Below, piece after piece: positions 1 through 13,912 of a stretch of 64,000 bases of DNA (positions are counted from its first letter, which is position 1; every line of letters begins with the position of its first letter). The position numbers and the translations under genes were made by a program. This stretch comes from Candidatus Omnitrophota bacterium (GTDB lineage: Bacteria; Omnitrophota; Gorgyraeia; Zapsychrales; JANLHA01), in NCBI GenBank assembly GCA_963662715.1, contig OY759724.1:1754662-1818661 (forward strand), written 5' to 3'. The notes beneath the pieces were generated by a model. That model was not told where the DNA came from and ran no database searches. It saw only the letters and a list, made by a program, of their open reading frames with translations.

Positions 1-1
1 A

Positions 2-256
2 GTGCAAAATGGTTTTGTTGTTTCAGATAAACCGGATATAGAAATTAGAATAACAGAGTTTAGTTTGGTAAATAAGGAGATTATTTCATTAACATTTGAT
101 ATGAGATCAGATGATACAATTTATAGAACGACACAATACCGTCCAAAGGTTGGACCAGGATATTATCAAGGTGTTTCTTATTTTAGGGCAACCCCAGGAA
201 TAGGGAAAGCTACAGATATAATTTTAGTTAGTATAATGCGTAGAATTAAACGATAA
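2..256 (+). CDS. hypothetical cassette protein, 5'-partial (runs off window start)
   Basis: Open frame from position 2, with no ATG at its start. Followed by an attC at 282-357. Confidence 0.35.
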   Translation: MQNGFVVSDKPDIEIRITEFSLVNKEIISLTFDMRSDDTIYRTTQYRPKVGPGYYQGVSYFRATPGIGKATDIILVSIMRRIKR

Positions 257-281
257 ATATGATAACTTAAAATTAAAATAA

Positions 282-357
282 TCTAACCAGTCAATCCACC
301 GGATCTGATTACGCACCTGACGGCGCTCCATCAGTCCGGTGATTTCCGGCGTTAGGT
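282..357 (+). repeat. integron attC site
   Basis: Begins atcTAACcag and ends ggcGTTAGGTg (GTTRRRY). GC-rich imperfect palindrome: ccggatctgatt...tcagtccggtgat. Confidence 0.65.
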
Positions 358-364
358 GTAATAA

Positions 365-922
365 ATGAAAAAAGAAATCGCACTAATTATATTAGCTTTA
401 ACATTAAGTAGCTGTGCCACAACTGGATTAAGTCTATCTAAAGATCAGGATTTAGCTGCAAAAGGAGACGCAGGAGGTCTAAATAATATGGGTAGCAGAT
501 ATCAGTTTGGAGATGGTGTTCCCCAAAATTATGACAAAGCAGTAATGTATTATCAAAAGGCTGTAGATGAAGGTCTGTCTCTTGCAAAGTCAAATTTAGG
601 ATATATGTATGATCTGGGGTTGGGGGTTGTAGAAAATAATGATAAAGCCATATCTTTGTACACGGAGGCGGCAAATGATGGATGTCCTAATGGCATGGTT
701 AATTTAGCAATAATGTATGCAAATGGTGATAACATTGAGCAGTCTTTTGAAAAGGCCTACTTTTGGTTAGAGATAGCTAGGTTTTATACCCAAAGGGAAT
801 CGAATATGCAAATTAAATGGAGAGCTCGAGGTTTACGAGATCAAGTAATTACAATGCTTAACTCTGAACAAATTAAAAGCATTAACAAAATGGCGCATGA
901 TTGGATAGAGGAAAACAGGTAA
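365..922 (+). CDS. Sel1-like repeat lipoprotein (cassette-encoded)
   Basis: Signal peptide plus lipobox LTLSSC. Repeated ~36-aa units of Sel1/TPR-like type (e.g. NLGYMYDLGLGVVENNDKAISLY and MVNLAIMYANG). Confidence 0.55.
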   Translation: MKKEIALIILALTLSSCATTGLSLSKDQDLAAKGDAGGLNNMGSRYQFGDGVPQNYDKAVMYYQKAVDEGLSLAKSNLGYMYDLGLGVVENNDKAISLYTEAANDGCPNGMVNLAIMYANGDNIEQSFEKAYFWLEIARFYTQRESNMQIKWRARGLRDQVITMLNSEQIKSINKMAHDWIEENR

Positions 923-952
923 ATCATATTAAAATTATAATAATTCAATAAA

Positions 953-1036
953 CACCTAACAACCGCATTCACGCGGACGCCTCGCACGCCGCAAAAAGCA
1001 GCGGCGGCTCGGCATCGGTGATGCGCAGGCGTTGTC
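953..1036 (+). repeat. integron attC site
   Basis: Begins caccTAACaaccg and ends ggcGTTGTCTgg. GC-rich palindromic arms. Confidence 0.55.
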
Positions 1037-1278
1037 TGGCTGGAGAGATTGGTGGCGGGAAATTTTACATGAGAAGCGGAGTGGCGTTTGCGTTTAAGAA
1101 ATTTGTTGTTGGTGACGAAATACAAGATGAGGATTCCAGTCAGAAATTCGAAGTGTCGTTGGAGGCGGGTGGCATCACAAAAGAGAAGAGATAAATAAAA
1201 TTGGGTTCATATTTTGAACATTGTTATTAGGAAGCATGACCCCAATTTTGGGAATGGATTTGGTTCAGCAAACAAAGC

Positions 1279-1356
1279 GTACAACAAATCACTTCAGCGG
1301 TCGCAGCTCCGGCAGCTTCGCCGCCTGCGCACGACCGCTGAGTTCTCACGTTATTT
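1279..1356 (+). repeat. integron attC site
   Basis: Begins gtaCAACAAatcacttcagcgg and ends ccgctgagttctcacGTTATTT. Same family as the attCs at 12358 and 12797 (shared core gccgcctgcgcacg.c.gctgagtt). Confidence 0.65.
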
Positions 1357-1367
1357 TTTGAAAAATT

Positions 1368-1742
1368 ATGAATAAACTTCCAGTCATAAAAGGTGAAAAG
1401 AACTATTTTCCAACAAAAGCTTTATGTCCTATCTGTAAAAAGAATAAGGTTCTAGAGCCTCATTCTATGGCAATAATTAGCGGTGGTGCTTTATTAATGA
1501 ATCGCAAGGATGATTCAGGAGGACCTTCAGGTAATTTAGAAAGCTATTTAAATTTAAGTTGGCACGGGGCACATGATGGAGGAGAAGGCGAAGACCGAGA
1601 AATTGGATTGATTATGGATATTGCACAAGATGTCAAAGGTGGGCAATTTGATTTGTATTTTTGTTCTACATCATGTTTGCGAGAATTTTTAAATTCTTGT
1701 GTTGATGAACTTGAAAAGAGAATAAGAAAAGAAAAAAAATAA
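1368..1742 (+). CDS. hypothetical Cys-rich cassette protein
   Basis: 124-aa ORF with CPIC...CSTSC cysteine pairs. Its TAA stop overlaps the start of the downstream attC (TAACAAGTCA). Confidence 0.45.
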   Translation: MNKLPVIKGEKNYFPTKALCPICKKNKVLEPHSMAIISGGALLMNRKDDSGGPSGNLESYLNLSWHGAHDGGEGEDREIGLIMDIAQDVKGGQFDLYFCSTSCLREFLNSCVDELEKRIRKEKK

Positions 1743-1749
1743 CAAGTCA

Positions 1750-3000
1750 TCCATGAAAACAGTCATCTGGTCAAGCATAAAATAGAAAGGCCAAATCATC
1801 CATTCGCGCTATATTCCCCAAAAGGACTTATGCGCACAATAGCGTATTATGACAGGGCGTGCCAATCACTACAACGGCCTTAAATATGCCAGAGTTGTTA
1901 ACAGCATCACCCATTTATACTGACCGATATTTATACTCACAGTTGTTTTTCAAAACAGCAAAAACAGATTTTAACAGCTTATGAGCAACAGCAACTATAG
2001 CGACACCGTAATCTTTTTTAGTTCGAATCTTCTGAAAATGAGTTTGTAAATATATATCACGGCGCACAGCGGTTTGAGCCGCTTCGACAAAAGCAGTGCG
2101 TAAGTATTTATTGCCATCTTTAGTAATAGGGCCTGAATAATAGCTTTGACCTGATTGATGGACACGAGGAACAATGCCGGCGTAACGGGCAAGTTTATGC
2201 GCATTCTTAAAGCGGGAGATGTCACCGATTTCAGCCAGGATGACATGAGCAAGAATAACCCCTATACCAGGGACAGTGTAGAGTAACCGAGCCTTAGAAT
2301 CGACTTTGATGTTCAGACGGAGACGAGAATCGATTTTGTAAATATGCCGGGAGAGAATATCGATAAAGGAGAGATAATCGGCAATCATGGAAGAATAAGG
2401 TTGCCGTAAGGATAATTGATTTAAGAAGAGTTTGCCGGAAACACCGAAGAGGTCGCTGAAAGAATGCTGAATACCCTGATAATCAAGGATAGCATGAATA
2501 CGATTTTTGAGGCTAGTGCGAATGGCGATCAAACGGTGGCGATACCGCATCAAAGCACGAGCATCACGATGAAAGCGGGAAACACGGTAAGCTTTGGGCA
2601 AGAGATCGGCTCTCAAGAGGTCAGCTAAAACAGAAGCAGAGATTTTATCGGTTTTAATGCGTTGTTCGGCAATAGCCTTAGTTCGCGCGGTATGAGCGAG
2701 AGAAACATCTAAGCCGGCCTCTTCAAGCAAGTCACCGAGCCAAAGGTCAAAGCCAGAGGCTTCCAGTGCGACAGAAGAGTTATGAGGAAGGGCTTTAAAA
2801 TAATTTTTCATAGCATCTTTCTGGAAGTGATATAATTTTGTTTGATCGATGCGGTTGCCATTCTGATCTTTAACGACAACATACGAATACTTTTTGTGTT
2901 GATCGATTCCGATGTAATACATACGTGCCTCCTTTCTGGAAGGTTGTGGTTTTTGGCTTAAAATCATTATACGCCTTCCAGAGGCACGTTTTCATACTAT
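1750..3000 (-). mobile_element. IS110-family insertion sequence (IS1111-attC-like), copy 1, inserted in an attC site
   Basis: A 1251-bp segment identical to 4585-4665 plus 6970-8143. It splits an attC between aacaagtca and (t)cactacagcgg. No obvious terminal inverted repeats; subterminal palindrome ctggaaggttgtgg...ccttccag. Carries a DEDD transposase. Confidence 0.8.
1915..2967 (-). CDS. IS110 family transposase (DEDD)
   Basis: 350 aa. N-terminal YYIGIDQHKK motif and C-terminal AGIVPRVHQSGQS motif are typical of IS110/IS1111 transposases. Identical copy at 7058-8110. Confidence 0.9.
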   Translation of the reverse strand: MILSQKPQPSRKEARMYYIGIDQHKKYSYVVVKDQNGNRIDQTKLYHFQKDAMKNYFKALPHNSSVALEASGFDLWLGDLLEEAGLDVSLAHTARTKAIAEQRIKTDKISASVLADLLRADLLPKAYRVSRFHRDARALMRYRHRLIAIRTSLKNRIHAILDYQGIQHSFSDLFGVSGKLFLNQLSLRQPYSSMIADYLSFIDILSRHIYKIDSRLRLNIKVDSKARLLYTVPGIGVILAHVILAEIGDISRFKNAHKLARYAGIVPRVHQSGQSYYSGPITKDGNKYLRTAFVEAAQTAVRRDIYLQTHFQKIRTKKDYGVAIVAVAHKLLKSVFAVLKNNCEYKYRSV

Positions 3001-3065
3001 CACTACAGCGGAGCCCCTCGCCACCTTCGGCAGACTCGGGACCCCGCTGAGTTCTCACGTTATAA
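3001..3065 (+). repeat. integron attC site, right portion (left 9 bp at 1741-1749; split by IS110 copy 1)
   Basis: cactacagcggagcccctcgccaccttcggcagactcgggaccccgctgagttctcacGTTATAA. Homologous to the intact attCs at 9339 and 10611. Confidence 0.7.
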
Positions 3066-3083
3066 ACAAAAATTAAAGAAAAA

Positions 3084-3761
3084 ATGTTTAAATTCAATTT
3101 CGATTTACTAAAAAAATCAAAAAATGTTCTATCCCAATATAAAAATATTTATTGGATTATCGGGGGAGCATGTTCTGGTAAATCAACCATATGTAAAACA
3201 ATTGCAAAACAAAAAAAGGCACATTTATACGATATGGATGAATATATATTTAGTAAATATATGAGCCGTTATACAAAAAAAAGACATCCTGCAAGTAAAA
3301 CATGGTTTTCGTCAAAGAACTCTCTAGATTGGGTATTATCTTTATCTTGGAAAGATTTTGATCAACTAAATAAAGCAGCCAATGCAGAATACCTGGATTT
3401 ATTTTCTGAAGATATGAAAAAGTATTCCTCTGATGATTTAATATTTGTTGATGGTGGCATCAGTTACCCTTCTGTACTAGCAAAAGCTTTTCCAATTAAG
3501 AATATTGTCTGTTTATATATTCCACCAACTCAAAGTAACATGTTATGGAACAATACTAAAGAAAGAAAACCAATGAAGGATATGATCCTAGATCTACCTC
3601 AAGGTAGAAAGAAATGGGAAAAATTCTTATTCTGTGACAAGAAGATAGCAGAAATCAGCTTGAGAGAATCTAAAAAACACAATATAAAGATATTTCGTAG
3701 AAATAATAATGTATCAATAAAACAATTATCGAAAAAAATTTTAAATTATTTTGACCTTTAA
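3084..3761 (+). CDS. P-loop NTPase / kinase-like ATP-binding protein (cassette)
   Basis: Walker A motif IIGGACSGKST near the N-terminus. 225 aa, AT-rich. Confidence 0.55.
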   Translation: MFKFNFDLLKKSKNVLSQYKNIYWIIGGACSGKSTICKTIAKQKKAHLYDMDEYIFSKYMSRYTKKRHPASKTWFSSKNSLDWVLSLSWKDFDQLNKAANAEYLDLFSEDMKKYSSDDLIFVDGGISYPSVLAKAFPIKNIVCLYIPPTQSNMLWNNTKERKPMKDMILDLPQGRKKWEKFLFCDKKIAEISLRESKKHNIKIFRRNNNVSIKQLSKKILNYFDL

Positions 3762-3770
3762 CTAAGTTTA

Positions 3771-3852
3771 TAACAACTCATTCCACCCGACCGTATTCGC
3801 GGCTTCGCCGCTCATCCGGCGGGTGAACTCGGGCTAGAAATGGGTTGAATTA
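3771..3852 (+). repeat. integron attC site
   Basis: Begins tATAACaactcattcc and ends gaaatgGGTTGAAT (GTTRRRY). GC-rich arms gcggcttcgccgc. Confidence 0.65.
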
Positions 3853-3898
3853 TACGTATAATTATGGTATACTCTATACGTATAAAGGAGGTATTAAA

Positions 3899-4147
3899 AT
3901 GGTAACAAAATTAACATTAGCTTTAGATGAAGCTGTGGTTAGAAAAGCAAAACAATATGCGAAAAAACAAAAGCTTAGCCTGTCAAAATTAGTTGAATTT
4001 TATTTCTCATCATTAGTATCTGATAATTATTCGGAACAATATAACATGCCGCCCATAACAGCAGAACTTGCAGGTATGGTCAAATCTAAATTGTTCAAAA
4101 GTGACAAGGATTTATTAACAGATACCTTGATAGAGAAATATGTATGA
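3899..4147 (+). CDS. type II antitoxin (VapB-like, ribbon-helix-helix-type), cassette-encoded
   Basis: Small 83-aa protein (MVTKLTLALDEAVVRKAKQYAKKQKLSLSKLVEFYF). It overlaps the downstream PIN-domain gene by 4 bp (ATGA). Start chosen at the internal ATG after a GGAGG-like RBS. Confidence 0.5.
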   Translation: MVTKLTLALDEAVVRKAKQYAKKQKLSLSKLVEFYFSSLVSDNYSEQYNMPPITAELAGMVKSKLFKSDKDLLTDTLIEKYV

Positions 4148-4563
4148 AAAATAAAATATTTATTGATACAGACATTTTTTTGGACACAATTCTTGATAGA
4201 AAACCGCATTCGAATTATTCAAATAGAATAATAAGCCTTTGTGAACAAAATGAAATTCAAGGATTTACATCTAGTCTTGTTATTGCAAACATTTATTACA
4301 TCTTAAATAAGTTGTCGAGCCACAACAAAGCCCTTCAAGCAATTAATAAGATTCGAGCTATAATTAATATCCTTCCCTTTACTGATAAAGAAATTGGTGA
4401 ATCAATTAATGCCGATTTCCAAGACTTCGAAGACGGCGTTCAGTATTTCATTGCGATTAACAATAAGGTAGACAGAATAATTACACGAAATGTTAAAGAT
4501 TTTAAAAAGGCCTCAATAGGGATATTGACTCCTAAAGAGTTCCTGCAATCAATAAATACGTAA
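4144..4563 (+). CDS. PIN-domain toxin (VapC-like)
   Basis: 139 aa. N-terminal IFIDTDIFLD acidic motif typical of the PIN fold. Translationally coupled to the upstream small gene. Confidence 0.6.
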   Translation: MKNKIFIDTDIFLDTILDRKPHSNYSNRIISLCEQNEIQGFTSSLVIANIYYILNKLSSHNKALQAINKIRAIINILPFTDKEIGESINADFQDFEDGVQYFIAINNKVDRIITRNVKDFKKASIGILTPKEFLQSINT

Positions 4564-4679
4564 TTATTAATGCATAACAAGTCATCCATGAAAACAGTCA
4601 TCTGGTCAAGCATAAAATAGAAAGGCCAAATCATCCATTCGCGCTATATTCCCCAAAAGGACTTATGTAATGACCCTAG

Positions 4680-5447
4680 TTAAGCAAGGATTTTTTTGTG
4701 TAGATCGAGTTCTTTGTTAATCCATCTTTTGTAAAACTCTTCAGGCGTAGCGAAGAATAATGCCTGATGAGGGAAATCGGTGTTGTAATCGTTGATCCAA
4801 CGCTTGAAGTCATCTTGAAGATCAAATGGGTTGTCCCATTCATTGATCCAAATGAAATCTTCTTTGATTCTGCGGATGACGCGTTCGGTGTCAGCATTGC
4901 CTTTGGGGTTGGACCAGGTTGAGAAGATCTGCTTGATGCCGGCCAGTGAACAATTAAGCCTGAAGCGCCCGCTGGTGGGCTGACAGCCATTGTCCGAGAT
5001 CAGGTGCAGGTCATGATTCAGTGTGTCTTTGATGCCGTTTGGGAATCGGTTGTTGATGGCCATTTCCAGGGCATCCAGCCAGTCATCAGTCTTTGACTGG
5101 ATGTTGAGGCTATAGCCGATAATTTCTTTGGTATACCAGTCTAGGACGATGGTCAGATAGAACCAGCCCCAGGTCGCCAGTTTGATTTTTGTCATATCGA
5201 TACCCCAGAATTGATTGGGGTGAGAAGCTCGTGGTTTCCGGCGGAGGTTGCCACGCTTGGCCTTCAAGCGATCGTTGGGTTGAACCGTTAATTGATTTTC
5301 TTGCATGAGGCGTTGGACACAATTTTTGCCAATTTTGTAATGTTTACGGTTGTTTAAATAGGCCCAGACTGAACGGTATCCCCAGAGGGGATGTTGCTTT
5401 TTAATTTGTCGGATTTTGACTAAATGTTTTTGGTCTTGTTCGATACG
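4680..5447 (-). pseudogene. IS3 orfB of the outer copy, separated from its own orfA by the inner insertion
   Basis: Identical to orfB at 5466-6257 but lacking the first ~6 codons, which continue at 6602 onward. Confidence 0.7.
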
Positions 5448-5465
5448 CTTTTGTAATGACCCTAG

Positions 5466-6257
5466 TTAAGCAAGGATTTTTTTGTGTAGATCGAGTTCTT
5501 TGTTAATCCATCTTTTGTAAAACTCTTCAGGCGTAGCGAAGAATAATGCCTGATGAGGGAAATCGGTGTTGTAATCGTTGATCCAACGCTTGAAGTCATC
5601 TTGAAGATCAAATGGGTTGTCCCATTCATTGATCCAAATGAAATCTTCTTTGATTCTGCGGATGACGCGTTCGGTGTCAGCATTGCCTTTGGGGTTGGAC
5701 CAGGTTGAGAAGATCTGCTTGATGCCGGCCAGTGAACAATTAAGCCTGAAGCGCCCGCTGGTGGGCTGACAGCCATTGTCCGAGATCAGGTGCAGGTCAT
5801 GATTCAGTGTGTCTTTGATGCCGTTTGGGAATCGGTTGTTGATGGCCATTTCCAGGGCATCCAGCCAGTCATCAGTCTTTGACTGGATGTTGAGGCTATA
5901 GCCGATAATTTCTTTGGTATACCAGTCTAGGACGATGGTCAGATAGAACCAGCCCCAGGTCGCCAGTTTGATTTTTGTCATATCGATACCCCAGAATTGA
6001 TTGGGGTGAGAAGCTCGTGGTTTCCGGCGGAGGTTGCCACGCTTGGCCTTCAAGCGATCGTTGGGTTGAACCGTTAATTGATTTTCTTGCATGAGGCGTT
6101 GGACACAATTTTTGCCAATTTTGTAATGTTTACGGTTGTTTAAATAGGCCCAGACTGAACGGTATCCCCAGAGGGGATGTTGCTTTTTAATTTGTCGGAT
6201 TTTGACTAAATGTTTTTGGTCTTGTTCGATACGCTTTAGAGAACGGCGTCTTTTCAT
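5466..6257 (-). CDS. IS3 family transposase OrfB (DDE integrase core)
   Basis: 263 aa. Matches the rve-type DDE region (WGIDMTKIK...LISDNGCQ...). Overlaps orfA by 4 bp. Confidence 0.85.
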   Translation of the reverse strand: MKRRRSLKRIEQDQKHLVKIRQIKKQHPLWGYRSVWAYLNNRKHYKIGKNCVQRLMQENQLTVQPNDRLKAKRGNLRRKPRASHPNQFWGIDMTKIKLATWGWFYLTIVLDWYTKEIIGYSLNIQSKTDDWLDALEMAINNRFPNGIKDTLNHDLHLISDNGCQPTSGRFRLNCSLAGIKQIFSTWSNPKGNADTERVIRRIKEDFIWINEWDNPFDLQDDFKRWINDYNTDFPHQALFFATPEEFYKRWINKELDLHKKILA

Positions 6258-6559
6258 AACTCGTACTCGTTTTTTTTTAGTTCAACGGTCAAGTCGCCGA
6301 TGATGCGTTTGAGTTTGGCGTTTTCTTTTTCAAGACGTTGCTCTTTCTGGGACTGTTGTTTGATGTCAAAGGCCATATGGCATTCTTTGAGGAACTGGTC
6401 GCGCCATTTGTAATATTGGGTTTGGCCAATTTGGTATTTGTTACAAAGTTTACTGATGTCGATTTTCCCGCTGAGGCCTTCAAGCACGATTTGGGTCTTT
6501 TGTTGGCTGGTCCATTGGCGTTTTTTCATGGGAATTGGGCTCCTTTCCTTGGAACTCAA
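6254..6559 (-). CDS. IS3 family transposase OrfA (HTH)
   Basis: 101 aa. HTH followed by a leucine-zipper-like C-terminus, typical of IS3 OrfA. Confidence 0.85.
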   Translation of the reverse strand: MSSKERSPIPMKKRQWTSQQKTQIVLEGLSGKIDISKLCNKYQIGQTQYYKWRDQFLKECHMAFDIKQQSQKEQRLEKENAKLKRIIGDLTVELKKNEYEL

Positions 6560-6621
6560 TTCTACACCATTTGTTTAAATTTGTTAACTAGGGTCACTAT
6601 ACTTTAGAGAACGGCGTCTTT

Positions 6622-6927
6622 TCATAACTCGTACTCGTTTTTTTTTAGTTCAACGGTCAAGTCGCCGATGATGCGTTTGAGTTTGGCGTTTTCTTTTTCA
6701 AGACGTTGCTCTTTCTGGGACTGTTGTTTGATGTCAAAGGCCATATGGCATTCTTTGAGGAACTGGTCGCGCCATTTGTAATATTGGGTTTGGCCAATTT
6801 GGTATTTGTTACAAAGTTTACTGATGTCGATTTTCCCGCTGAGGCCTTCAAGCACGATTTGGGTCTTTTGTTGGCTGGTCCATTGGCGTTTTTTCATGGG
6901 AATTGGGCTCCTTTCCTTGGAACTCAA
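6622..6927 (-). CDS. IS3 family transposase OrfA (outer copy)
   Basis: Identical to the OrfA at 6254-6559. Confidence 0.8.
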   Translation of the reverse strand: MSSKERSPIPMKKRQWTSQQKTQIVLEGLSGKIDISKLCNKYQIGQTQYYKWRDQFLKECHMAFDIKQQSQKEQRLEKENAKLKRIIGDLTVELKKNEYEL

Positions 6928-7057
6928 TTCTACACCATTTGTTTAAATTTGTTAACTAGGGTCACTATACTTATGCGCACAATAGCGTATTATGACAGGG
7001 CGTGCCAATCACTACAACGGCCTTAAATATGCCAGAGTTGTTAACAGCATCACCCAT

Positions 7058-8110
7058 TTATACTGACCGATATTTATACTCACAGTTGTTTTTCAAAACA
7101 GCAAAAACAGATTTTAACAGCTTATGAGCAACAGCAACTATAGCGACACCGTAATCTTTTTTAGTTCGAATCTTCTGAAAATGAGTTTGTAAATATATAT
7201 CACGGCGCACAGCGGTTTGAGCCGCTTCGACAAAAGCAGTGCGTAAGTATTTATTGCCATCTTTAGTAATAGGGCCTGAATAATAGCTTTGACCTGATTG
7301 ATGGACACGAGGAACAATGCCGGCGTAACGGGCAAGTTTATGCGCATTCTTAAAGCGGGAGATGTCACCGATTTCAGCCAGGATGACATGAGCAAGAATA
7401 ACCCCTATACCAGGGACAGTGTAGAGTAACCGAGCCTTAGAATCGACTTTGATGTTCAGACGGAGACGAGAATCGATTTTGTAAATATGCCGGGAGAGAA
7501 TATCGATAAAGGAGAGATAATCGGCAATCATGGAAGAATAAGGTTGCCGTAAGGATAATTGATTTAAGAAGAGTTTGCCGGAAACACCGAAGAGGTCGCT
7601 GAAAGAATGCTGAATACCCTGATAATCAAGGATAGCATGAATACGATTTTTGAGGCTAGTGCGAATGGCGATCAAACGGTGGCGATACCGCATCAAAGCA
7701 CGAGCATCACGATGAAAGCGGGAAACACGGTAAGCTTTGGGCAAGAGATCGGCTCTCAAGAGGTCAGCTAAAACAGAAGCAGAGATTTTATCGGTTTTAA
7801 TGCGTTGTTCGGCAATAGCCTTAGTTCGCGCGGTATGAGCGAGAGAAACATCTAAGCCGGCCTCTTCAAGCAAGTCACCGAGCCAAAGGTCAAAGCCAGA
7901 GGCTTCCAGTGCGACAGAAGAGTTATGAGGAAGGGCTTTAAAATAATTTTTCATAGCATCTTTCTGGAAGTGATATAATTTTGTTTGATCGATGCGGTTG
8001 CCATTCTGATCTTTAACGACAACATACGAATACTTTTTGTGTTGATCGATTCCGATGTAATACATACGTGCCTCCTTTCTGGAAGGTTGTGGTTTTTGGC
8101 TTAAAATCAT
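7058..8110 (-). CDS. IS110 family transposase (DEDD), copy 2
   Basis: Identical to the protein at 1915-2967. Confidence 0.9.
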   Translation of the reverse strand: MILSQKPQPSRKEARMYYIGIDQHKKYSYVVVKDQNGNRIDQTKLYHFQKDAMKNYFKALPHNSSVALEASGFDLWLGDLLEEAGLDVSLAHTARTKAIAEQRIKTDKISASVLADLLRADLLPKAYRVSRFHRDARALMRYRHRLIAIRTSLKNRIHAILDYQGIQHSFSDLFGVSGKLFLNQLSLRQPYSSMIADYLSFIDILSRHIYKIDSRLRLNIKVDSKARLLYTVPGIGVILAHVILAEIGDISRFKNAHKLARYAGIVPRVHQSGQSYYSGPITKDGNKYLRTAFVEAAQTAVRRDIYLQTHFQKIRTKKDYGVAIVAVAHKLLKSVFAVLKNNCEYKYRSV

Positions 8111-8143
8111 TATACGCCTTCCAGAGGCACGTTTTCATACTAT

Positions 8144-8207
8144 CACTACAGCGGAGCCCCTCGCCACCTTCGGCAGACTCGGGACCCCGCTGAGTTCGTT
8201 GTTGGCC
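8144..8207 (+). repeat. integron attC site, right portion (left 9 bp at 4576-4584; split by IS110 copy 2)
   Basis: cactacagcggagcccctcgccaccttcggcagactcgggaccccgctgagttcGTTGTTGGCC. Confidence 0.7.
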
Positions 8208-8210
8208 TAA

Positions 8211-8948
8211 ATGGAGAATATCATGGTTGAAGATGTGGTCGTAGAACCGATGACAGAGGAATCCATCCTGTGGCGTTGTCTTCATGGTGGGCCGATTGTG
8301 CTCGACACTATTGATCAATCCCCTCTTGGAGGCTCGATACCGTGGGTGTGCTATCGGGATCGAAACACCTCACTCTTGGTGAAACTCACCAGAACCTATG
8401 GAGCTTGCGCTATCTTAGCACGCGATGGCGAGCAGATTGTAGGCCACCTTCGTTTCTATCCCAAGTTTGTCTGTGACAAGGAGGGGGCAGGTGGTCTTTG
8501 CCTTCAGCAAGATTCTCCTACAGGTCCAATTGAAGACTTTGCCGACAGCAACTTTCCAGAACCTATACAGATAGAAGACAAGACACTTGTCGTTCATTGC
8601 CTTATGACAGGAAGCTCCCAGCAGAAAGAGAATCCGTACCAGCGGGAGGGCATCGGCACACGCATGGTCAAAGCTTTGATTGAGTGGGCCAGAGTAAACA
8701 GCTGGGAACGAATTGAGGCGAACTCCTTTGAGGACCTTTCCATTATTTACGATACTACAGGAAGTGCTGGCCATACATTCTGGGAGAAATTGGGATTTCA
8801 CCTTGTTGATCGGCATCCACACCCGGAGCTGCAGGATCGTAGCCAGTTCGGCGGGTTTATCAAGACGCTCGAAGAACAGGCAGAGACTATCGGAATTCCC
8901 GTTGAGCGAGCAAGAGATCGACTCGTTATGCGTCTCGATCTGTTATGA
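8211..8948 (+). CDS. GNAT family N-acetyltransferase (cassette)
   Basis: Acetyl-CoA binding-like motif QREGIGTRMVKALIEWAR and C-terminal GFHLVD. 245 aa. Confidence 0.6.
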   Translation: MENIMVEDVVVEPMTEESILWRCLHGGPIVLDTIDQSPLGGSIPWVCYRDRNTSLLVKLTRTYGACAILARDGEQIVGHLRFYPKFVCDKEGAGGLCLQQDSPTGPIEDFADSNFPEPIQIEDKTLVVHCLMTGSSQQKENPYQREGIGTRMVKALIEWARVNSWERIEANSFEDLSIIYDTTGSAGHTFWEKLGFHLVDRHPHPELQDRSQFGGFIKTLEEQAETIGIPVERARDRLVMRLDLL

Positions 8949-8962
8949 TATAAACTGGATAT

Positions 8963-9031
8963 GCCAACAACGGGCTTGACAAGGAAGCGCGAAAAAGGCA
9001 GCCGCGCTCCTGTCAGCCCGAGCGTTGTGCG
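8963..9031 (+). repeat. integron attC site
   Basis: Begins TGCCAACaacgggc and ends cccgagcGTTGTGC. Palindromic arms gcgcgaaaaaggcagccgcgc. Confidence 0.55.
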
Positions 9032-9039
9032 GTAAGATA

Positions 9040-9282
9040 ATGAAAATGAAGAATATCATCAATAAACTTCTTGGCCCCAAATGTGCAAAATGCAAGAAAG
9101 CAGCACTTAAATTATTTGAATCCCCATTCACGGGAGAAACATTATTTCAAGCTCATAAATGTCCACAATGTGGTTCATTATATTGTGATGATTGTTATCC
9201 GTCTCTGCCTTGGACATCATATCCGATGGGATATTCTAAATGTCCAGATTGTGATTTACAGCTAGAAAGATATTTAAAATAG
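9040..9282 (+). CDS. zinc-ribbon hypothetical protein (cassette)
   Basis: CAKC...CPQC...CDDC...CPDC cysteine pairs. 80 aa. Confidence 0.4.
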   Translation: MKMKNIINKLLGPKCAKCKKAALKLFESPFTGETLFQAHKCPQCGSLYCDDCYPSLPWTSYPMGYSKCPDCDLQLERYLK

Positions 9283-9338
9283 AAGAAATAGATAAAAAAT
9301 AAAAGAATATAGATTAAGCAAACTTTGCGCACAACAAG

Positions 9339-9416
9339 TCACTACAGCGAGGGCGCTCGGCCACCTTTGGCAGGCTCGGGACCCCGATGAGTTCCTTGCG
9401 TTAGACGAAAAAATAT
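9339..9416 (+). repeat. integron attC site (intact member of the family targeted by IS110)
   Basis: acAACAAGTCACTACAGCGagggcgctcggccacctttggcaggctcgggaccccgatgagttccttgcGTTAGAC. Confidence 0.75.
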
Positions 9417-9439
9417 TATAATTATGATATAATGACCTT

Positions 9440-9628
9440 ATGAAAATTAATAAACAAATAGTAACATTAAAGAAAATCACTCAACAGGACGACTGTTTTG
9501 TCGACACTTCTCCTCAAGAAAGGGTATTATTTGTTTGGGAGCTAACGGCAGAATTGTGGTCTTTGAAAGGCAAGGAACATGTTGAACGAAGACTACAAAG
9601 AGATATTACAAATCTTATTAAAAAATGA
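9440..9628 (+). CDS. small hypothetical protein, possible partner of the downstream nucleotidyltransferase
   Basis: 62-aa ORF overlapping the next gene's start. Sits in the same cassette. Confidence 0.3.
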   Translation: MKINKQIVTLKKITQQDDCFVDTSPQERVLFVWELTAELWSLKGKEHVERRLQRDITNLIKK

Positions 9629-10022
9629 TGTTCAATTTCTTGTTGTGGGCGCATATGCAATGGCTGCTTATGGATATCCTAGGGCAACAGGTGATTTTGA
9701 TATTTGGGTAGAATCCTCAATAGAAAATTCAGAAAATATTTATAAATCATTGCTTGAATTTGGAACTCCATTGACAGGAATAACTAAAGATACATTTTCA
9801 GAAGATGGGCTTGTTTTTCAGATCGGAGTTGCGCCCAGAAGAATAGATATTATAACAGGTATTGATGGGGTTAATTTTGAGGATGCGTTTAAGGATAAAG
9901 AAGGTATTGAGGTCGAGGGTTTAAAATTGCCTTTTATATCGAAAGAGAACTTAATAAAAAATAAAAAGGCTACAGGCAGAGAAAAAGATAGATTAGATAT
10001 TAAATATTTAGAAGATAAATAA
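9579..10022 (+). CDS. nucleotidyltransferase-fold protein (MNT/DUF6036-like)
   Basis: GAYAMAAYG...GDFDIW motif (G-S/x then DxD) of minimal nucleotidyltransferases. 147 aa. Confidence 0.5.
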   Translation: MLNEDYKEILQILLKNDVQFLVVGAYAMAAYGYPRATGDFDIWVESSIENSENIYKSLLEFGTPLTGITKDTFSEDGLVFQIGVAPRRIDIITGIDGVNFEDAFKDKEGIEVEGLKLPFISKENLIKNKKATGREKDRLDIKYLEDK

Positions 10023-10024
10023 AT

Positions 10025-10102
10025 CGTCTAACAAGGCAATTAAGCGGCACAAGCTCGCACCTTTTGGCGCTCGCTTACGCCGTTTATTTTTTTGCGTTAC
10101 TC
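10025..10102 (+). repeat. integron attC site
   Basis: Begins cgTCTAACaagg and ends tttgcGTTACTC. Arms gcacaagctcgcacc/ggcgctcgcttacgcc. Confidence 0.55.
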
Positions 10103-10127
10103 TGAGCGTATTAATCGGGAAAATACT

Positions 10128-10604
10128 ATGGCTTCAACTGATAATGAATTTGTGATTGGTGCAACAATAGTTAAGTATGGCCTTTTTGAGTCTGCCGTTG
10201 CGGAGAAAAAGAAGAATGAAGGACTTCCATACTCATCATACGAAGAAAAAGCAACAATAATGCATTTACAAACCACAGATATTATTAAGGGAAAGATCGG
10301 GATAGAATTTGGTATATCATATGTTGTTAATTCAGTAAATCAGATTCATCTTATGGCTGAGAATCAATCTATTGAAATAAAAACAGTAGTGATATATCCG
10401 AGTCCGGGTATCAGAGATGTTGAAAATAATAAGATTTATCATGATTCAATAACATATAGAGATGTTCCTATGGATGCTGAAGTGTATGAAGGTTATTTTA
10501 TCGGTGGTGAGACAGATATTGTGGCCGGAGAATGGACATTTCAAATATGGCATAACGATCACAAGTTGGCAGAAAAAATATTTGATATTACAAAAGATAA
10601 ATAA
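10128..10604 (+). CDS. hypothetical cassette protein
   Basis: 158-aa ORF from an internal ATG after the attC. No recognisable motifs. Confidence 0.4.
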   Translation: MASTDNEFVIGATIVKYGLFESAVAEKKKNEGLPYSSYEEKATIMHLQTTDIIKGKIGIEFGISYVVNSVNQIHLMAENQSIEIKTVVIYPSPGIRDVENNKIYHDSITYRDVPMDAEVYEGYFIGGETDIVAGEWTFQIWHNDHKLAEKIFDITKDK

Positions 10605-10610
10605 GACAAC

Positions 10611-10677
10611 ATCTAACAAGTCACTCTGGCGGCACCGTTGGCAGGCTCGGGACCCCGCTGAGTTCGTTGCGTTGGAT
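10611..10677 (+). repeat. integron attC site
   Basis: ATCTAACAAGTCACTctggcggcaccgttggcaggctcgggaccccgctgagttcgttgcGTTGGAT. Confidence 0.75.
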
Positions 10678-10688
10678 TGGAAAAGAGA

Positions 10689-11171
10689 ATGTATTGTCCA
10701 GATGATGGTTTGAAATTAAATCGACTTGAAAGAAATGGCATTGAAATTTATGAATGCACCGAATGCGGGGGGCTTTGGACTCCCGTCAGAGCGATTGATT
10801 ATAAAAATACTTTAATTGACCATAAAGGTAGCAGTGATTTGTTGTGCCTTTCCTGTCAAGAACCAATGAATGAAAAAATATACAGAAGTTATCAAATAAT
10901 TGTATGTGAAGACTGTCAATATGCCTGGATTGGCGGGACAATCATTAAATCCTTATTTGTTAAAACTGATAAAGCAGAAATAAGAGCAAATGATAATTGT
11001 TTAACAGATGCTTTGGGGGCATTTAAAGAAGGACTGCCTCAATGGGTGATGGAGATCTTTGTGAATTTGCCGGATAAAGAAACATTGAATGCTCTGGCAG
11101 AAATTGCAGGAGAAGCGGGAGAAACGGTCGTGGAATTTTTTGCGTTTTTGTTTTCTGATATATCTAATTAA
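10689..11171 (+). CDS. zinc-ribbon hypothetical protein (cassette)
   Basis: CPDDG..CTECGG and CLSC...CEDC cysteine pairs. ATG at 10689. The TAA stop overlaps the attC start TAACAAG. Confidence 0.45.
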   Translation: MYCPDDGLKLNRLERNGIEIYECTECGGLWTPVRAIDYKNTLIDHKGSSDLLCLSCQEPMNEKIYRSYQIIVCEDCQYAWIGGTIIKSLFVKTDKAEIRANDNCLTDALGAFKEGLPQWVMEIFVNLPDKETLNALAEIAGEAGETVVEFFAFLFSDISN

Positions 11172-11257
11172 CAAGACATCCAACCATTCCCTGCGGCGTG
11201 GGCCCGGCCCCCTGCGGCTTCGTCAGGGGCCGATGAGTTCCTGGCGCTATGTTTAAA
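11167..11257 (+). repeat. integron attC site
   Basis: Begins atTAACAAGacatcc and ends cgtcaggggccgatgagttcctggcgctatGTTTAAA. Same family as the attCs at 13821 and 16066. Confidence 0.65.
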
Positions 11258-11265
11258 ATTCAAAA

Positions 11266-11643
11266 ATGACTAGCTTTAATAGAACCAAATGGATTTTGTT
11301 AATATCAATCGCGACCTTATTTGTAGGTGTCGTGCCTGTATATTTGAACAGAAGCATTGCTTCAAAATATCCTGTGTGGGAATCGGGTTGTTTTCAATAT
11401 CAAAATAACCACAAAATTGAGCCCGTATCTGAATACTGCGATTTACCAGCAGGCGAGAGGCGTTTATTATTGTTGGGAGAATTAATAAAAAGAGAGTGTT
11501 CCGAGTTATTATTTTACGCATATATATTTTTTGGTATAGCCGCTGTGGTTTTAAGGAAATTTAAATTTTTCTTTTTCCCGGTAATAATACATTTAATTCT
11601 TTGCTTGGTGATTTTATTAATATTTGGAAACATAGGAATTTGA
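11266..11643 (+). CDS. hypothetical membrane protein (cassette)
   Basis: Three hydrophobic helices. 125 aa. Confidence 0.4.
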   Translation: MTSFNRTKWILLISIATLFVGVVPVYLNRSIASKYPVWESGCFQYQNNHKIEPVSEYCDLPAGERRLLLLGELIKRECSELLFYAYIFFGIAAVVLRKFKFFFFPVIIHLILCLVILLIFGNIGI

Positions 11644-11660
11644 TTTTAGAAAAATTAAAA

Positions 11661-11721
11661 ACATAACAACTCCCTGTGGCGGCCCTTGCTCCGGTGGCTG
11701 CGCCGTTGAGTATGGTTTGTT
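11661..11721 (+). repeat. integron attC site
   Basis: Begins ACATAACaactccctgtggcggccc and ends ggctgcgccgttgagtatgGTTTGTT. Confidence 0.55.
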
Positions 11722-11731
11722 GTGCCAGAAA

Positions 11732-12355
11732 ATGAAAGAAAAAACATTTAAGCTTTTAACATTTTCCTCGCTTGCTATAACAGTCATCTCTTCTGCATTT
11801 TTGATCCATCGCATAAGATATGCTTTCTGGGGGATCAAAATAATTCCCATCCGAAATATCCTGAATGATAAAGAAATCCTTTTTATTAATTGCTGTCTTG
11901 ATTTTATCCTTTCTTTGCCTTTGTCGATGCTTGTCTCTTATTTTCTCTTGCTGAAAATTGATTCCTTAATTCCTGAAACTTGTCAGGATTTTCTTAAGCG
12001 TTTTCAGCGGCATACTCCTTACGGCGTAGTTAAGAGAAACGACCCGGAACTATTTAAAATTGCCGGTTCAAAATCTCCAGCCAGAGGTGTGCTTGAAATA
12101 TCGGCCGGATTAATTGTTTTGGCTGTGTTTATCGCGTGTGAAGCTTTTGCTTACTACGCAAGATATGAGATCCTCGGGATACCTTTTATTTCAGCCGGAG
12201 CCGGTGTGCAGCCAGCAATCAATTCATTAATCAATTTTATAATATCGATACCATTTTTGGGTGTAGTGGCTTTTTTGTTGATAAAACTTATTAAGTTGTT
12301 CGAAAAAATTTTAGGGGAAAGTATTATTGATTTTTATTCAACCATATTACGATAA
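11732..12355 (+). CDS. hypothetical polytopic membrane protein (cassette)
   Basis: Multiple hydrophobic segments. Internal ATG at 11732 used as start. Confidence 0.4.
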   Translation: MKEKTFKLLTFSSLAITVISSAFLIHRIRYAFWGIKIIPIRNILNDKEILFINCCLDFILSLPLSMLVSYFLLLKIDSLIPETCQDFLKRFQRHTPYGVVKRNDPELFKIAGSKSPARGVLEISAGLIVLAVFIACEAFAYYARYEILGIPFISAGAGVQPAINSLINFIISIPFLGVVAFLLIKLIKLFEKILGESIIDFYSTILR

Positions 12356-12357
12356 AA

Positions 12358-12431
12358 GCGCAACATCAGGTTCAGCATGGCGCGGGGAAACTTCGCCGCC
12401 TGCGCATGGCCGCTGAGTTGTCGCGTTACGT
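12358..12431 (+). repeat. integron attC site
   Basis: GCGCAACatcaggttcagcatggcgcggggaaacttcgccgcctgcgcatggccgctgagttgtcgcGTTACGT. Confidence 0.7.
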
Positions 12432-12472
12432 GAAAGATGGAATCTCCCCGTTAAAAAATTGAGGTCACCAGA

Positions 12473-12742
12473 ATGAGAAAAAAAGAAAGCAATCCAAAAG
12501 AGGACAAACTTAAAGGGACTGTAAATGCTGGGTACAAGATCATTGCCGTTAAAGAGGCCCCGATGAAGTACCCCATCCCACTTGTCCCTGCGGAAAGTAT
12601 TGTCTTAGCAAAACGCGTGAACAATTCGGCCCCAACCAATTACGTGGTATGGGAGTATGTTGGCCATGGCGAATTCAGGTCTGGTATTTACGAAGATAAT
12701 AGGGCGGAAGCAGAGAATATTTTTAATTCACAAACAAAATAA
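12473..12742 (+). CDS. hypothetical cassette protein
   Basis: 89-aa ORF with a GGTCACC-like RBS region upstream. Confidence 0.4.
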   Translation: MRKKESNPKEDKLKGTVNAGYKIIAVKEAPMKYPIPLVPAESIVLAKRVNNSAPTNYVVWEYVGHGEFRSGIYEDNRAEAENIFNSQTK

Positions 12743-12796
12743 GACTGTATGTATCTCAAATATTCGTTGAACATGTGGAATAAATATAACAAAAAC

Positions 12797-12863
12797 ACGC
12801 AACAACCTGCTCCTGCAGCCACTGCTCCGGCCTGCGCACGGCTGCTGAGTTCTTACGTTAGGA
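12797..12863 (+). repeat. integron attC site
   Basis: ACGCAACaacctgctcctgcagccactgctccggcctgcgcacggctgctgagttcttacGTTAGGA. Confidence 0.7.
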
Positions 12864-12905
12864 GAAGAGATTGAGTGTATATCGGAATTTAATGATGCAA
12901 GTGGC

Positions 12906-13262
12906 ATGTGCACGTTCACTGTCACCGGTAAGGTCCGTAGTCCCGAGGATGGGTATGAACTTCAATGCCGCGCAAACCAGGTCTCTATCCAGCATGAATG
13001 CCGTTTCTTTCTCATCGACATGAGACAGGCCGAGATAATAACTAAAACGATGCCTGCATTCGAAACGGCAAAAGTGAAGGATGAGTTCCGCCAGGAACTC
13101 CGAAAGCATAAGACGGCAGTGCTTTATTCAAGACTTGCAGAACATGAGCGCTTCTTTGAAACTGTTGCGGTGAACAGTGGTTTCACGCTCAAAGTGTTTG
13201 ACAGGTATGATGAAGCCGTTGAGTGGCTTGCAAAAGATTGTATCTCGGTCAACAGTGTGTGA
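12906..13262 (+). CDS. hypothetical protein, paralog of 13913-14296 (STAS/SpoIIAA-like?)
   Basis: Shares a C-terminal block with 13913-14296: ...AVLYS....E..FFE.VAVN.GF.L.VFD..DE...WL. Confidence 0.45.
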   Translation: MCTFTVTGKVRSPEDGYELQCRANQVSIQHECRFFLIDMRQAEIITKTMPAFETAKVKDEFRQELRKHKTAVLYSRLAEHERFFETVAVNSGFTLKVFDRYDEAVEWLAKDCISVNSV

Positions 13263-13269
13263 AAAAAAC

Positions 13270-13904: not shown

Positions 13905-13912
13905 GAATTAGC

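Follow-up and report, generated by a model that had tools for sequence, protein, structure and literature searches.

At least ten attC sites, all on the plus strand and in one orientation, lie between 1.3 and 15.6 kb of the window (i.e., the whole 64-kb stretch of DNA that was analysed). They end in GTTAGAC, GTTGGAT and similar sequences, and the attC motif (R″ RYYYAAC-L″…L′-R′ GTTRRRY) has seven matches compared with 1.3 expected. One of these sites is interrupted by an IS1111-type element of the IS110 family, which contains an IS3-family element, which in turn contains a second copy of itself. The parts of this nest, together with an uninterrupted copy of the IS1111-type element, are as follows:

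1750–3002, minus strand: IS1111-type element, copy 1, uninterrupted, within the attC that belongs to the preceding cassette; shows the IS3 target in its empty state
4574–4584, plus strand: 5′ part of the attC of a DUF6364/PIN toxin-antitoxin cassette (ATAACAAG and the core TCA), to the left of IS1111-type copy 2
4585–8145, minus strand: IS1111-type element, copy 2, 3561 bp including the nest, 1253 bp once the nest is removed, otherwise identical to copy 1
4585–4665, minus strand: positions 85–165 of the 3′ non-coding region (NCR) of copy 2, with the 3′ half of hairpin 2, the right end with its subterminal repeat, and the left-hand CTTA (4662–4665)
4662–4665 and 6970–6973, no strand: CTTA target-site duplication of the outer insertion, present as a single CTTA at 1828–1831 in IS1111-type copy 1
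4666–5451, minus strand: outer IS3-family copy, 3′ part (IS positions 365–1150), with orfB from codon 8 to its stop at 4680–5447 and the IRR end TGTAATGACC at 4666
5448–5451 and 6602–6605, no strand: CTTT target-site duplication of the inner insertion, present as a single CTTT at 6234–6237 in the intact inner copy
5452–6601, minus strand: inner complete IS3-family copy, 1150 bp, with orfA (6254–6529, from ATG), orfB (5466–6257) and an A9 slippery run (6270–6278)
6602–6969, minus strand: outer IS3-family copy, 5′ part (IS positions 1–368), with the IRL end, an intact orfA (6622–6897, from ATG) and its slippery run (6638–6646)
6970–7057, minus strand: positions 1–88 of the 3′ NCR of copy 2, with hairpin 1 and the 5′ half of hairpin 2, ending in the right-hand CTTA (6970–6973)
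7058–8065, minus strand: DEDD transposase gene (IS110 family) of copy 2, encoding 335 aa when started at MYYIGID (an extended open reading frame reaches 8110)
8146–8207, plus strand: 3′ part of the interrupted attC (CTACAGCGG...GAGTTCGTT GTTGGCC), to the right of IS1111-type copy 2

The first-pass annotation had placed the host element within an attC, and an attC-like site of the cassette array does lie on both sides of it. When the two parts are rejoined, the reconstructed site folds as an R″/L″-L′/R′ two-stem hairpin with bulges, the energies of which are no better than those of shuffled sequences; intact attC sites of the array are found at 9.3 kb and 10.6 kb (AACAAGTCACTACAGCG / AACAAGTCACTCTGGCG). 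Both IS1111-type copies of the window interrupt the sequence AACAAG-TCA|CTACAGCG, with the transposase gene on the minus strand and the cassette open reading frames on the plus strand, and copy 1 occupies the same position of another attC, 2.8 kb from copy 2. Relatives with transposases that are 62–67% identical occupy the homologous attC position, and one of them (L075) adjoins an integrase. No homologue of that integrase was found in the window, which holds an attC cluster without an integrase; as the array continues past the left-hand boundary of the window, the intI gene may lie beyond it. The criteria for the IS1111-attC group were taken from PMC3001079 and PMC11187229: members of this group insert near the 5′ end of attC in an orientation-specific manner, antisense to the cassettes (PMC3001079).

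The transposase of the host element matches PF01548 and PF02371, and scores 229 bits on the NCBIfam model NF033542 (transpos_IS110), for which the cut-off is 140, in keeping with the earlier assignment of the host to the IS110 family. The host is, more specifically, an IS1111-type element, which the first-pass annotation had missed. IS1111 elements have subterminal inverted repeats with short asymmetric extensions and lack a conventional target-site duplication, and these features, together with the criteria for a guide RNA, have been set out in PMC11187229 and PMC11208160. In the window, the ends read TGATAGT-ATGAAAAC...GTTTTCAT-GGA, i.e., an 8-bp subterminal inverted repeat with extensions of 7 nt and 3 nt, and the core TGA (3 nt) is the sole sequence common to both junctions of the element. 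Once the nest is removed, copy 2 is 100% identical to copy 1 (1750–3002). Compared with transposases on sequenced plasmids, the best plasmid-borne matches are less than 40% identical to the IS110 transposase of the window. A 350-aa open reading frame at 60044–61096 was considered as a third IS110 copy and rejected, there being no copy at the DNA level.

The element within the host is 1150 bp long and belongs to the IS3 family. Its OrfB scores 173.3 bits on the NCBIfam model NF033516 (transpos_IS3; cut-off 160) and contains the domains PF00665 (rve), PF13276 (HTH_21) and PF13683 (rve_3), and OrfA contains the HTH_Tnp_1 domain. The IS3 family (IS911, IS2, IS3, IS150) comprises copy-out-paste-in DDE elements that produce OrfA and, by a programmed −1 frameshift, OrfAB. 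In the element of the window, orfB lies in the −1 frame, the stop codon of orfA and the start codon of orfB overlap as ATGA, a run of nine A residues that can be read as A AAA AAA lies 13 nt before the orfA stop, and the reading frame of orfB opens a little 5′ of this run. This is the −1 frameshift architecture of the family; frameshifting itself is predicted from it, and would give an OrfAB fusion of 354 aa. The two terminal inverted repeats agree in 16 of their 18 positions (TGTAATGACCCTAGTTAA / TATAGTGACCCTAGTTAA). IS3-family ends are usually 5′-TG…CA-3′: the right end of this element finishes …TTACA-3′, and the left end starts 5′-TATAGT, i.e., with TA rather than TG, which is conserved among relatives. 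Among IS3-family transposases on sequenced plasmids, none shares more than about 34% identity with that of the element, close relatives have so far been found solely in metagenome-assembled genomes (MAGs) of uncultured Omnitrophota and other organisms and, as far as the searches show, the element matches no named IS. The predicted circle junction would read GGTCATTACA-N3-4-TATAGTGACC. A possible IRR–IRL circle-junction promoter, TTAACT-16 nt-TATAGT, is also suggested by the end sequences.

The first-pass annotation had described two identical 1150-bp IS3-family copies, one inside the other, and this is borne out base for base. The inner copy spans 5452–6601 (1150 bp), the outer copy can be rebuilt from 4666–5451 and 6606–6969 (also 1150 bp), and the two are 100% identical at all 1150 positions. 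The nest contains exact repeats of 786 bp and 368 bp with precise ends, which far exceeds chance. In the 64-kb window the ends of the element occur in four places only, all of them in the nest, and no further copy was found there by BLAST. The duplications and inverted-repeat boundaries that had been proposed, CTTA for the outer insertion and CTTT for the inner one, were confirmed by comparing the junctions with the empty sites. The outer junctions read ...GGACTTA|TGTAATGACC... and ...GGTCACTATA|CTTATGCGC, and the corresponding empty target, GGACTTATGCGC, is uninterrupted in IS1111-type copy 1 (1828–1831). The inner junctions read ...GATACGCTTT|TGTAATGACC... and ...GGTCACTATA|CTTTAGAGAACGG, and the empty target, GATACGCTTTAGAG, is uninterrupted within the inner copy itself (6234–6237). 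Taken alone, the junctions of the window are also compatible with a 3-bp duplication, because both targets start with CTT. However, the ends are fixed by relatives in other metagenomes (TATAsTGACC...GGTCATTACA), which are flanked by 4-bp duplications of variable sequence (CCTT, CTGA, CCGG, CGAT, CTTT, ATAC and TTTA in independent relatives). Thus, the length of the element is settled at 1150 bp with a 4-bp duplication, and the alternative of a 1151-bp element with a 3-bp duplication was rejected. Family models, junctions and the attC-like site together support all four levels of nesting that had been claimed, i.e., IS3 within IS3 within IS110 within attC.

Identical repeats are a classic cause of misassembly and the source is an assembly from an uncultured organism (the relatives, too, are all MAGs), such that a single IS3 copy at this site might have been turned into a nest by mis-joined repeat reads or by the joining of molecules from different strains. 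Such an artefact would have to produce two new junctions, each linking an exact IS terminus to one and the same interior position, as well as a perfect 4-bp duplication, which is the usual length for this element, whereas collapse or expansion of repeats yields tandem or truncated copies, which this nest does not resemble. A protein identical to the IS110 transposase of the window (P0241 in the public collection) is located on a contig of 3,360,633 bp, and as the assembly reached 3.36 Mb and spanned two identical 1253-bp IS1111-type copies, the reads would have been long enough for 1.2-kb repeats. The exact target duplications and the evidence from this contig render an artefact very unlikely. 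Possibly, the nest is carried by only some members of the population; a misassembly is conceivable. A search for an independent assembly by exact protein match (orfB, the PIN and GNAT cassette proteins, and the IS110 transposase from both starts) found none, and the exact nested junction (inner-junction sequences GATACGCTTTTGTAATGACC and GGTCACTATACTTTAGAGAACGG) was not found among the 19 loci of a metagenome scan with the right-end 23-mer. The flank of one of these loci (L064), which starts AAAGCGT, was considered as IS interior and rejected.

The self-insertion lies in codon 8 of orfB, 20 nt into the gene. The first-pass annotation had located it exactly at the orfA/orfB overlap; it is indeed near the overlap, but the break lies 17 nt 3′ of it, and 33 nt 3′ of the A9 slippery run. 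Thus, the outer copy keeps both an intact orfA and the frameshift site, since the insertion falls 3′ of both. Its 5′ part holds codons 1–8 of orfB, seven of which precede the break while the eighth lies within the duplicated CTTT. As had been proposed, the inner copy parts the remainder of the outer orfB (4680–5447) from its orfA (in 6602–6969), and is itself complete (1150 bp, orfA and orfB, predicted fusion of 354 aa). It would therefore be able to supply transposase, whereas the OrfAB of the outer copy would terminate after 104 aa instead of 354. The proposal that the outer copy had been inactivated holds as far as OrfAB is concerned, which it could presumably no longer make; but both of its ends, orfA and the frameshift site remain, and OrfA could still be made.

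In a rival reading, the element prefers a structured or sequence-defined target near its own frameshift signal, or CTTW or hairpin loops in general, by which it would limit itself. Both targets begin with CTT, and one of them lies in a hairpin loop of the IS1111-type NCR, the other just 3′ of a predicted stem that follows the slippery run. In L048, a different element breaks a related copy at a point 8 nt away from the position of the self-insertion, in what is a probable IS-in-IS junction, and another relative (L006) lies within an IRL-like sequence. However, the CTTW consensus is absent from the duplications and right flanks of about 25 independent relatives, and empty sites reconstructed for the relatives and for the two targets of the window have no preference for hairpins (z-scores from −1.4 to +1.0). 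Truncated relatives break off at scattered positions (51, 103, 376, 520, 659, 689, 693, 804, 1012 and 1028), and the stem that follows the slippery run is a weak one, at −6 kcal/mol; a strong frameshift-stimulating structure was sought at the insertion point, and just a weak stem of −6 to −8 kcal/mol was found there, ending just 5′ of the site. A preference for CTTW or hairpin targets was rejected on the flanks and folds of the relatives, and targeted self-insertion is very improbable.

The outer insertion lies in the 3′ NCR of the host, which is 168 nt long compared with 35–80 nt for the 5′ end. The NCR has a consensus fold of two hairpins that is conserved in five lineages, and the IS3 target is in the variable apical loop of hairpin 2. 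Hairpin 1 contains two segments that match the target, TAACAA (7038–7043) and TGTAGTGA (7009–7016). The second of these corresponds to the left target flank plus the core, being TGTAGTGA in the window and TGGATTGA in four of the relatives (L074, L075, L078 and L080). The donor-matching segment of hairpin 2, ATGGATGAT at 4630–4638, shows covariation with the sequence of the right end in L080 and L081; segment 3 of the NCR corresponds to the right end plus the core and changes together with the right end (ATGGA, ATAGA, ATAGG). A search of 1–16 kb of the window against Rfam (E≤1) found nothing, i.e., no curated RNA family covers the IS1111 NCR here. The NCR has the features of a bridge RNA or seekRNA, the RNA itself being predicted.

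The predicted donor-binding hairpin of copy 2 is split by 2308 bp, while the transposase gene, both ends and the target-binding hairpin are kept. On this fold, copy 2 is probably left without a guide RNA of its own and, because of the split hairpin, probably relies on the RNA of copy 1 in trans. Short seekRNAs of 70–100 nt have been reported for IS1111 elements (PMC11187229), and the functional RNA of this element might sit largely 5′ of the insertion point, which would speak against loss of the guide RNA. It is conceivable, though unlikely, that copy 2 is still mobile with a guide RNA supplied in trans by copy 1, and could carry the IS3 nest into further attC sites. If so, a promiscuous DDE-type IS3 element would be coupled to a programmable, site-specific vehicle, and the four closely spaced IS3 ends could yield new variants, including sub-elements of 1518 bp and 1936 bp.

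The locus has very probably arisen by three successive transpositions into the dispensable DNA of a chromosomal integron cassette array. First, the RNA-guided IS1111-type element would have entered an attC at its specific site, the 5′ end, in the orientation opposite to that of the cassettes. Second, the 1150-bp IS3 element would have entered the 3′ NCR of copy 2, at the apical loop of hairpin 2, with duplication of CTTA. Third, a new IS3 copy would have entered its parent, 20 nt into orfB, with duplication of CTTT. By analogy with its family, this last copy would have been made by copy-out-paste-in via a circular intermediate, with the donor staying in place; we infer both the order of events and the circle. 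The absence of substitutions between copies implies that all three events are very recent. Presumably, proximity (with a transposase that acts in cis and a circle produced nearby) and the neutrality of the target promoted the self-insertion, and no specific target sequence was involved. The frequency of insertion of one IS within another approximates that expected from target size, and ISs typically have no target immunity (PMC12065110).

Alternatively, a 2304-bp composite of the two IS3 copies could have arisen elsewhere and moved into IS1111-type copy 2 by means of its outer ends, which would make the CTTT event the older of the two. Both outer ends remain intact, the inner copy encodes complete OrfA and OrfAB for the transposition of such a unit, and in experiments nested ISs have given rise to transposing sub-sequences and variants (PMC12065110). 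Against this, the 100% identity over 1150 bp gives no age difference between the copies, neither the element nor the nest recurs elsewhere in the 64-kb window, an unseen additional locus would be needed, and the inner pair of ends would serve equally well as a substrate. Movement of the nest as a unit is improbable.

Under the preferred reading of three successive insertions, the nest is an ordinary outcome of known transposition mechanisms. It provides a clean natural example of an IS3-family element without self-immunity, in which the donor copy itself was hit, in keeping with local production of the circular copy and with a transposase that acts in cis. The nest also offers a natural case in which an insertion divides the donor-binding hairpin predicted for the guide RNA of an IS1111-type element, and the covariation of guide, target and donor end in uncultured Omnitrophota-like genomes supports the published bridge RNA/seekRNA model in a distant lineage. 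Cassette arrays with their resident ISs can be seen as neutral landing pads on which mobile elements pile up. On the practical side, such nests cause pseudogene calls and mark spots for assembly checks.

The IS3 element resembles its family in the orfA/orfB layout, the slippery A-run, terminal inverted repeats of which the right one ends …CA-3′, and a target-site duplication within the range of 3–5 bp; it differs in having TATA(G/C)T instead of TG at the left end across its clade, and at 1150 bp is small for this family. The host resembles the IS1111-attC group (ISPa21, ISPst6, ISKpn4; Tetu and Holmes 2008; Post and Hall 2009) in that its insertion is specific for site and orientation, lying near the 5′ end of attC and running opposite to the cassettes. 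The nest as a whole resembles the nesting of transposable elements in neutral “safe havens”, as known for nested LTR retrotransposons of plants and clusters of bacterial ISs, in that inactive or dispensable mobile DNA is entered repeatedly and this is tolerated by selection, although here there were three events only. Compared with the IS1111-type elements that have seekRNAs or bridge RNAs (Siddiquee et al. 2024; Durrant et al. 2024), the host has the same DEDD transposase, short left end, long right non-coding end, extensions of 7 nt and 3 nt, and natural re-targeting among relatives. Its subterminal inverted repeat is 8 bp, compared with the usual 11–13 bp according to Siddiquee et al. (PMC11187229) and a range of 7–17 bp according to Durrant et al. 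(PMC11208160). Finally, like the nested IS1 variants that Kanai et al. (NAR 2025, PMC12065110) obtained in evolution experiments with activated IS1, the locus has an IS inserted into the same IS with a normal duplication, an inactivated outer copy, and homologous sequences and four ends brought close together; unlike them, it involves an IS3-family rather than an IS1 element, occurs in the natural genome of an uncultured organism, and has two further levels, the IS1111-type element and the attC.

The second of the two IS110 copies in the window carries an IS3-family element, which itself carries another. These elements are:

1750-3002: IS110 copy 1, an uninterrupted IS1111-type element
4585-8145: IS110 copy 2, an IS1111-type element carrying the nest
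4666-5451 and 6606-6969, minus strand: outer IS3-family copy, in two parts
5452-6601, minus strand: inner IS3-family copy, complete

Compared by script, the inner copy is 1150 bp long and the outer copy, once its two parts are joined, is 1150 bp long with zero differences from it, as the first-pass annotation had proposed. A repeat finder and BLAST gave the same repeat blocks in the 64-kb window and revealed no additional copy of the IS3 element there. The outer copy is bordered on both sides by CTTA (4662-4665 and 6970-6973) and the inner copy on both sides by CTTT (5448-5451 and 6602-6605). The window also holds both empty sites: GATACGCTTTAGAG, with a single CTTT at 6234-6237, in the intact inner copy, and GGACTTATGCGC, with a single CTTA at 1828-1831, in IS110 copy 1. 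Because both targets begin with CTT, the junctions in the window alone would also fit a 3-bp duplication and an element of 1151 bp. This is ruled out by relatives in independent assemblies, in which the element ends are TATA(C/G)TGACC...GGTCATTACA and the duplications are 4-bp, of unrelated sequences (CCTT, CTGA, CCGG, CGAT, CTTT, ATAC, TTTA). Thus, the 4-bp duplications and the 1150-bp boundaries, which were also checked by script on the junctions, hold as first annotated. The sequence fits either order of events, formation of the nest at this site or its arrival here as a 2304-bp unit.

It is most improbable that the nest was created by the assembly. At the inner junctions, exact element ends meet a single interior point with a perfect duplication of 4 bp, an arrangement that collapse or expansion of a repeat does not generate; two identical 1253-bp IS110 copies are spanned by the window without a break; and a protein identical to the IS110 transposase of the window sits on a single contig of 3,360,633 bp, which implies long-read quality.

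The IS3 element has two open reading frames on the minus strand. orfA starts at the ATG at 6529, with GGAG 8-11 nt upstream, and encodes an HTH_Tnp_1 domain; orfB (263 aa) encodes HTH_21, rve and rve_3 domains and scores 173 bits on the NCBIfam IS3 model (cut-off 160). orfB is in the -1 frame, and its ATG and the orfA stop overlap in the sequence ATGA. IS positions 324-332 form a run of nine consecutive A, which the orfA frame divides as A AAA AAA. Since the open orfB frame already begins just 5′ of this run, a -1 shift would give an OrfAB of 354 aa. The left-end start, TATA(G/C)T, is conserved across the element's clade (window left ends at 6596-6601 and 6964-6969, minus strand). If the two ends were joined in a circle with 4 bp between them, TTAACT of the right end would fall 16 nt upstream of TATAGT, and the two, resembling a -35/-10 pair, are a candidate junction promoter. 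In a search of 5.8 billion proteins, small elements of this kind made up a large family (closest 97% identical), many of them on metagenome contigs of about 1.2 kb. The nearest relatives in genome bins are in Candidatus Omnitrophota MAGs (84-89% identical), and identity to transposases from sequenced plasmids is only about 34%. The element is an undescribed member of its family, from an uncultured lineage.

The self-insertion had been placed exactly at the orfA/orfB overlap; it is near, but not at, this point. The duplicated AAAG (minus-strand reading) is IS positions 365-368, i.e., orfB codon 8, 17 nt beyond the orfA stop and 33 nt beyond the slippery run. The outer copy retains the slippery site and an intact orfA, and its frameshift product would end at 104 residues, within the end of the inner copy; the remainder of its orfB is 1154 bp distant. 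Immediately downstream of the slippery run, the RNA forms only a weak stem (-6 to -8 kcal/mol), which ends 5′ of the insertion point. Past its TAA stop, the frame of the inner orfB continues into what is left of the outer orfB (…A*LGSLQKRIEQ…; window 5448-5470), a match of phase expected by chance one time in three and probably no more than that; read-through of the TAA, if it occurred, would yield a tandem OrfB-OrfB protein.

A special target site for the self-insertion found no support: no CTTW consensus is present in the flanks of about 25 independent relatives, no unusual structure marks the rebuilt empty sites, those of the window among them (z-scores -1.4 to +1.0), and the break points of truncated relatives are scattered over the element. 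At locus L048 (1-194 and 1235-1609), from a MAG labelled Planctomycetales, a related IS3 element has its 3′ terminus directly against interior sequence of another copy, at about position 1012. This is probably another insertion of one IS into another, truncated where the contig stops. An additional 5′ fragment at this locus, adjoining a Y1/RAYT-like transposase gene, ends at IS position 376, 8 nt from the position struck in the window. At locus L006 (~2650-2660, 3812-3830), a relative (transposase 62% identical) with a CTGA duplication lies within TATACTGACCCCA, which is identical to the left-terminal 13 nt of the L049-type element, a hint that the target was an IRL-like sequence. Some IS3-family members are described as inserting into such IR-like sequences. 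The L048 and L006 cases leave room for a weak form of the special-site idea.

With uniform targeting in a genome of about 3.4 Mb, a self-hit is unlikely unless there are many copies, and proximity is therefore inferred to have helped. IS911 has a cis-acting enzyme and produces its copy at the donor site; by analogy, a new IS3 copy made at the donor site would favour a self-hit, and a neutral target would likewise favour self-insertion. Target immunity is generally absent in ISs, the reported frequency of IS-within-IS insertions is close to that predicted from target size, and nested ISs give rise to variants (PMC12065110).

The host ORF (350 aa; 335 aa from MYYIGID) has both IS110-family domains and scores 229 bits on the NCBIfam IS110 model (cut-off 140), and IS110 copy 1 is identical to copy 2 minus the nest. 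In transposase orientation, the ends are TGATAGT-ATGAAAAC ... GTTTTCAT-GGA, with TGA at both junctions, an 8-bp subterminal repeat and extensions of 7 nt and 3 nt; the 5′ end is short and the 3′ non-coding region (NCR) is 168 nt long. Such extended subterminal repeats, a short 5′ end and a long 3′ NCR define the IS1111 group (PMC11187229, PMC11208160), so that by its ends and NCR the host is classed as IS1111-type. Plasmid relatives of its transposase are less than 40% identical.

Both copies interrupt the same attC-like position, between AACAAG-TCA and CTACAGCG, and both reconstructed sites fold as two-stem hairpins with GTTRRRY-like end cores. Domains, model scores, identical copies and the interrupted attC bear out all four annotated levels. 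At least 10 attC-like sites, all on the plus strand, lie behind short ORFs at 1.3-15.6 kb. No integrase homologue was found within the 64-kb window and the array runs past its left edge; within the window, this is an attC cluster without intI. The array (1-15650) has low GC (37-43%), and from about 16 kb there are core genes with a GC of 46-51%. The IS-bearing attCs (3003-3054, 8146-8197) are identical for 55 nt 3′ of the IS and diverge before the R′ core, and the other attCs are only about 80% similar to them; this reflects either close attC paralogy or co-transfer of the flank by recombination. Relatives with different flanks clearly fix the TGA core as the IS boundary. Directly upstream of IS110 copy 2, a cassette (3899-4563) encodes a DUF6364 protein and then a PIN_3-domain protein with a 4-nt overlap, a two-gene toxin-antitoxin pair. 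Such pairs are typical stabilising cassettes in chromosomal arrays.

The NCR, numbered from the transposase side, contains guide-like segments:

6970-7057 and 4585-4665 (copy 2), 1750-1914 (copy 1): NCR, two hairpins; internal-loop segments TGTAGTGA and ATGGATGA (right end + core)
7038-7043: segment 1, TAACAA, complementary to the right target flank
7009-7016: segment 2, TGTAGTGA, equal to left target flank + core
4630-4638: segment 3, ATGGATGAT, equal to right end + core

In the seekRNA of IS1111 elements, the top-strand complement is 5′ of the bottom-strand match (PMC11187229). IS1111-type relatives (loci L074-L082; transposases 62-67% identical) are at the homologous attC position, and one adjoins an IntI-like integrase. 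At L075 (2401-3774), some 0.9 kb separates the relative from a tyrosine recombinase of 457 aa (Phage_int_SAM_4 + Phage_integrase), with a PilW-like cassette between them, an arrangement consistent with an integron integrase beside an IS-invaded first cassette. Relatives with left flank TGGAT-TGA have TGGATTGA as the NCR segment, and in those with right end ATAGA or ATAGG the third segment is altered correspondingly; L081 and L082 match somewhat less exactly in the target segment. Judged from sequence, this tracking of flank and right end represents re-targeting that has taken place naturally in an uncultured lineage. When five lineages are aligned, the consensus is a conserved pair of hairpins with guide-like segments in internal loops and variable apical loops; no Rfam family matches this RNA.

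The outer IS3 duplication is at NCR positions 85-88, in the apical loop of hairpin 2, and the donor-matching segment and right end are now 2308 bp from hairpin 1 and the transposase gene. We infer that copy 2 would be unable to produce a full guide RNA of its own and would rely on copy 1. Short seekRNAs of 70-100 nt are reported (PMC11187229), and a functional seekRNA might lie mostly upstream of the IS3 break.

The nest is a neat stack, with the split guide-RNA region as a useful extra. Every layer is of a known kind (IS3, IS1111-type, cassette-array attC, IS-within-IS), with no departure from established mechanisms. The orfA/orfB, -1 frame and predicted OrfAB layout of the IS3 element are standard for its family, whereas its left end is TATAGT rather than the usual TG. 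Judged by insertion site and orientation, the host resembles the IS1111-attC group in behaviour. Its transposase is antisense to the cassettes and it interrupts attC close to the 5′ end, a position and orientation like those reported for ISPa21 and ISPst6 (PMC3001079), and its NCR, from which the RNA is predicted, shares its architecture with published bridge/seekRNAs and its segment order with those of IS1111 elements.
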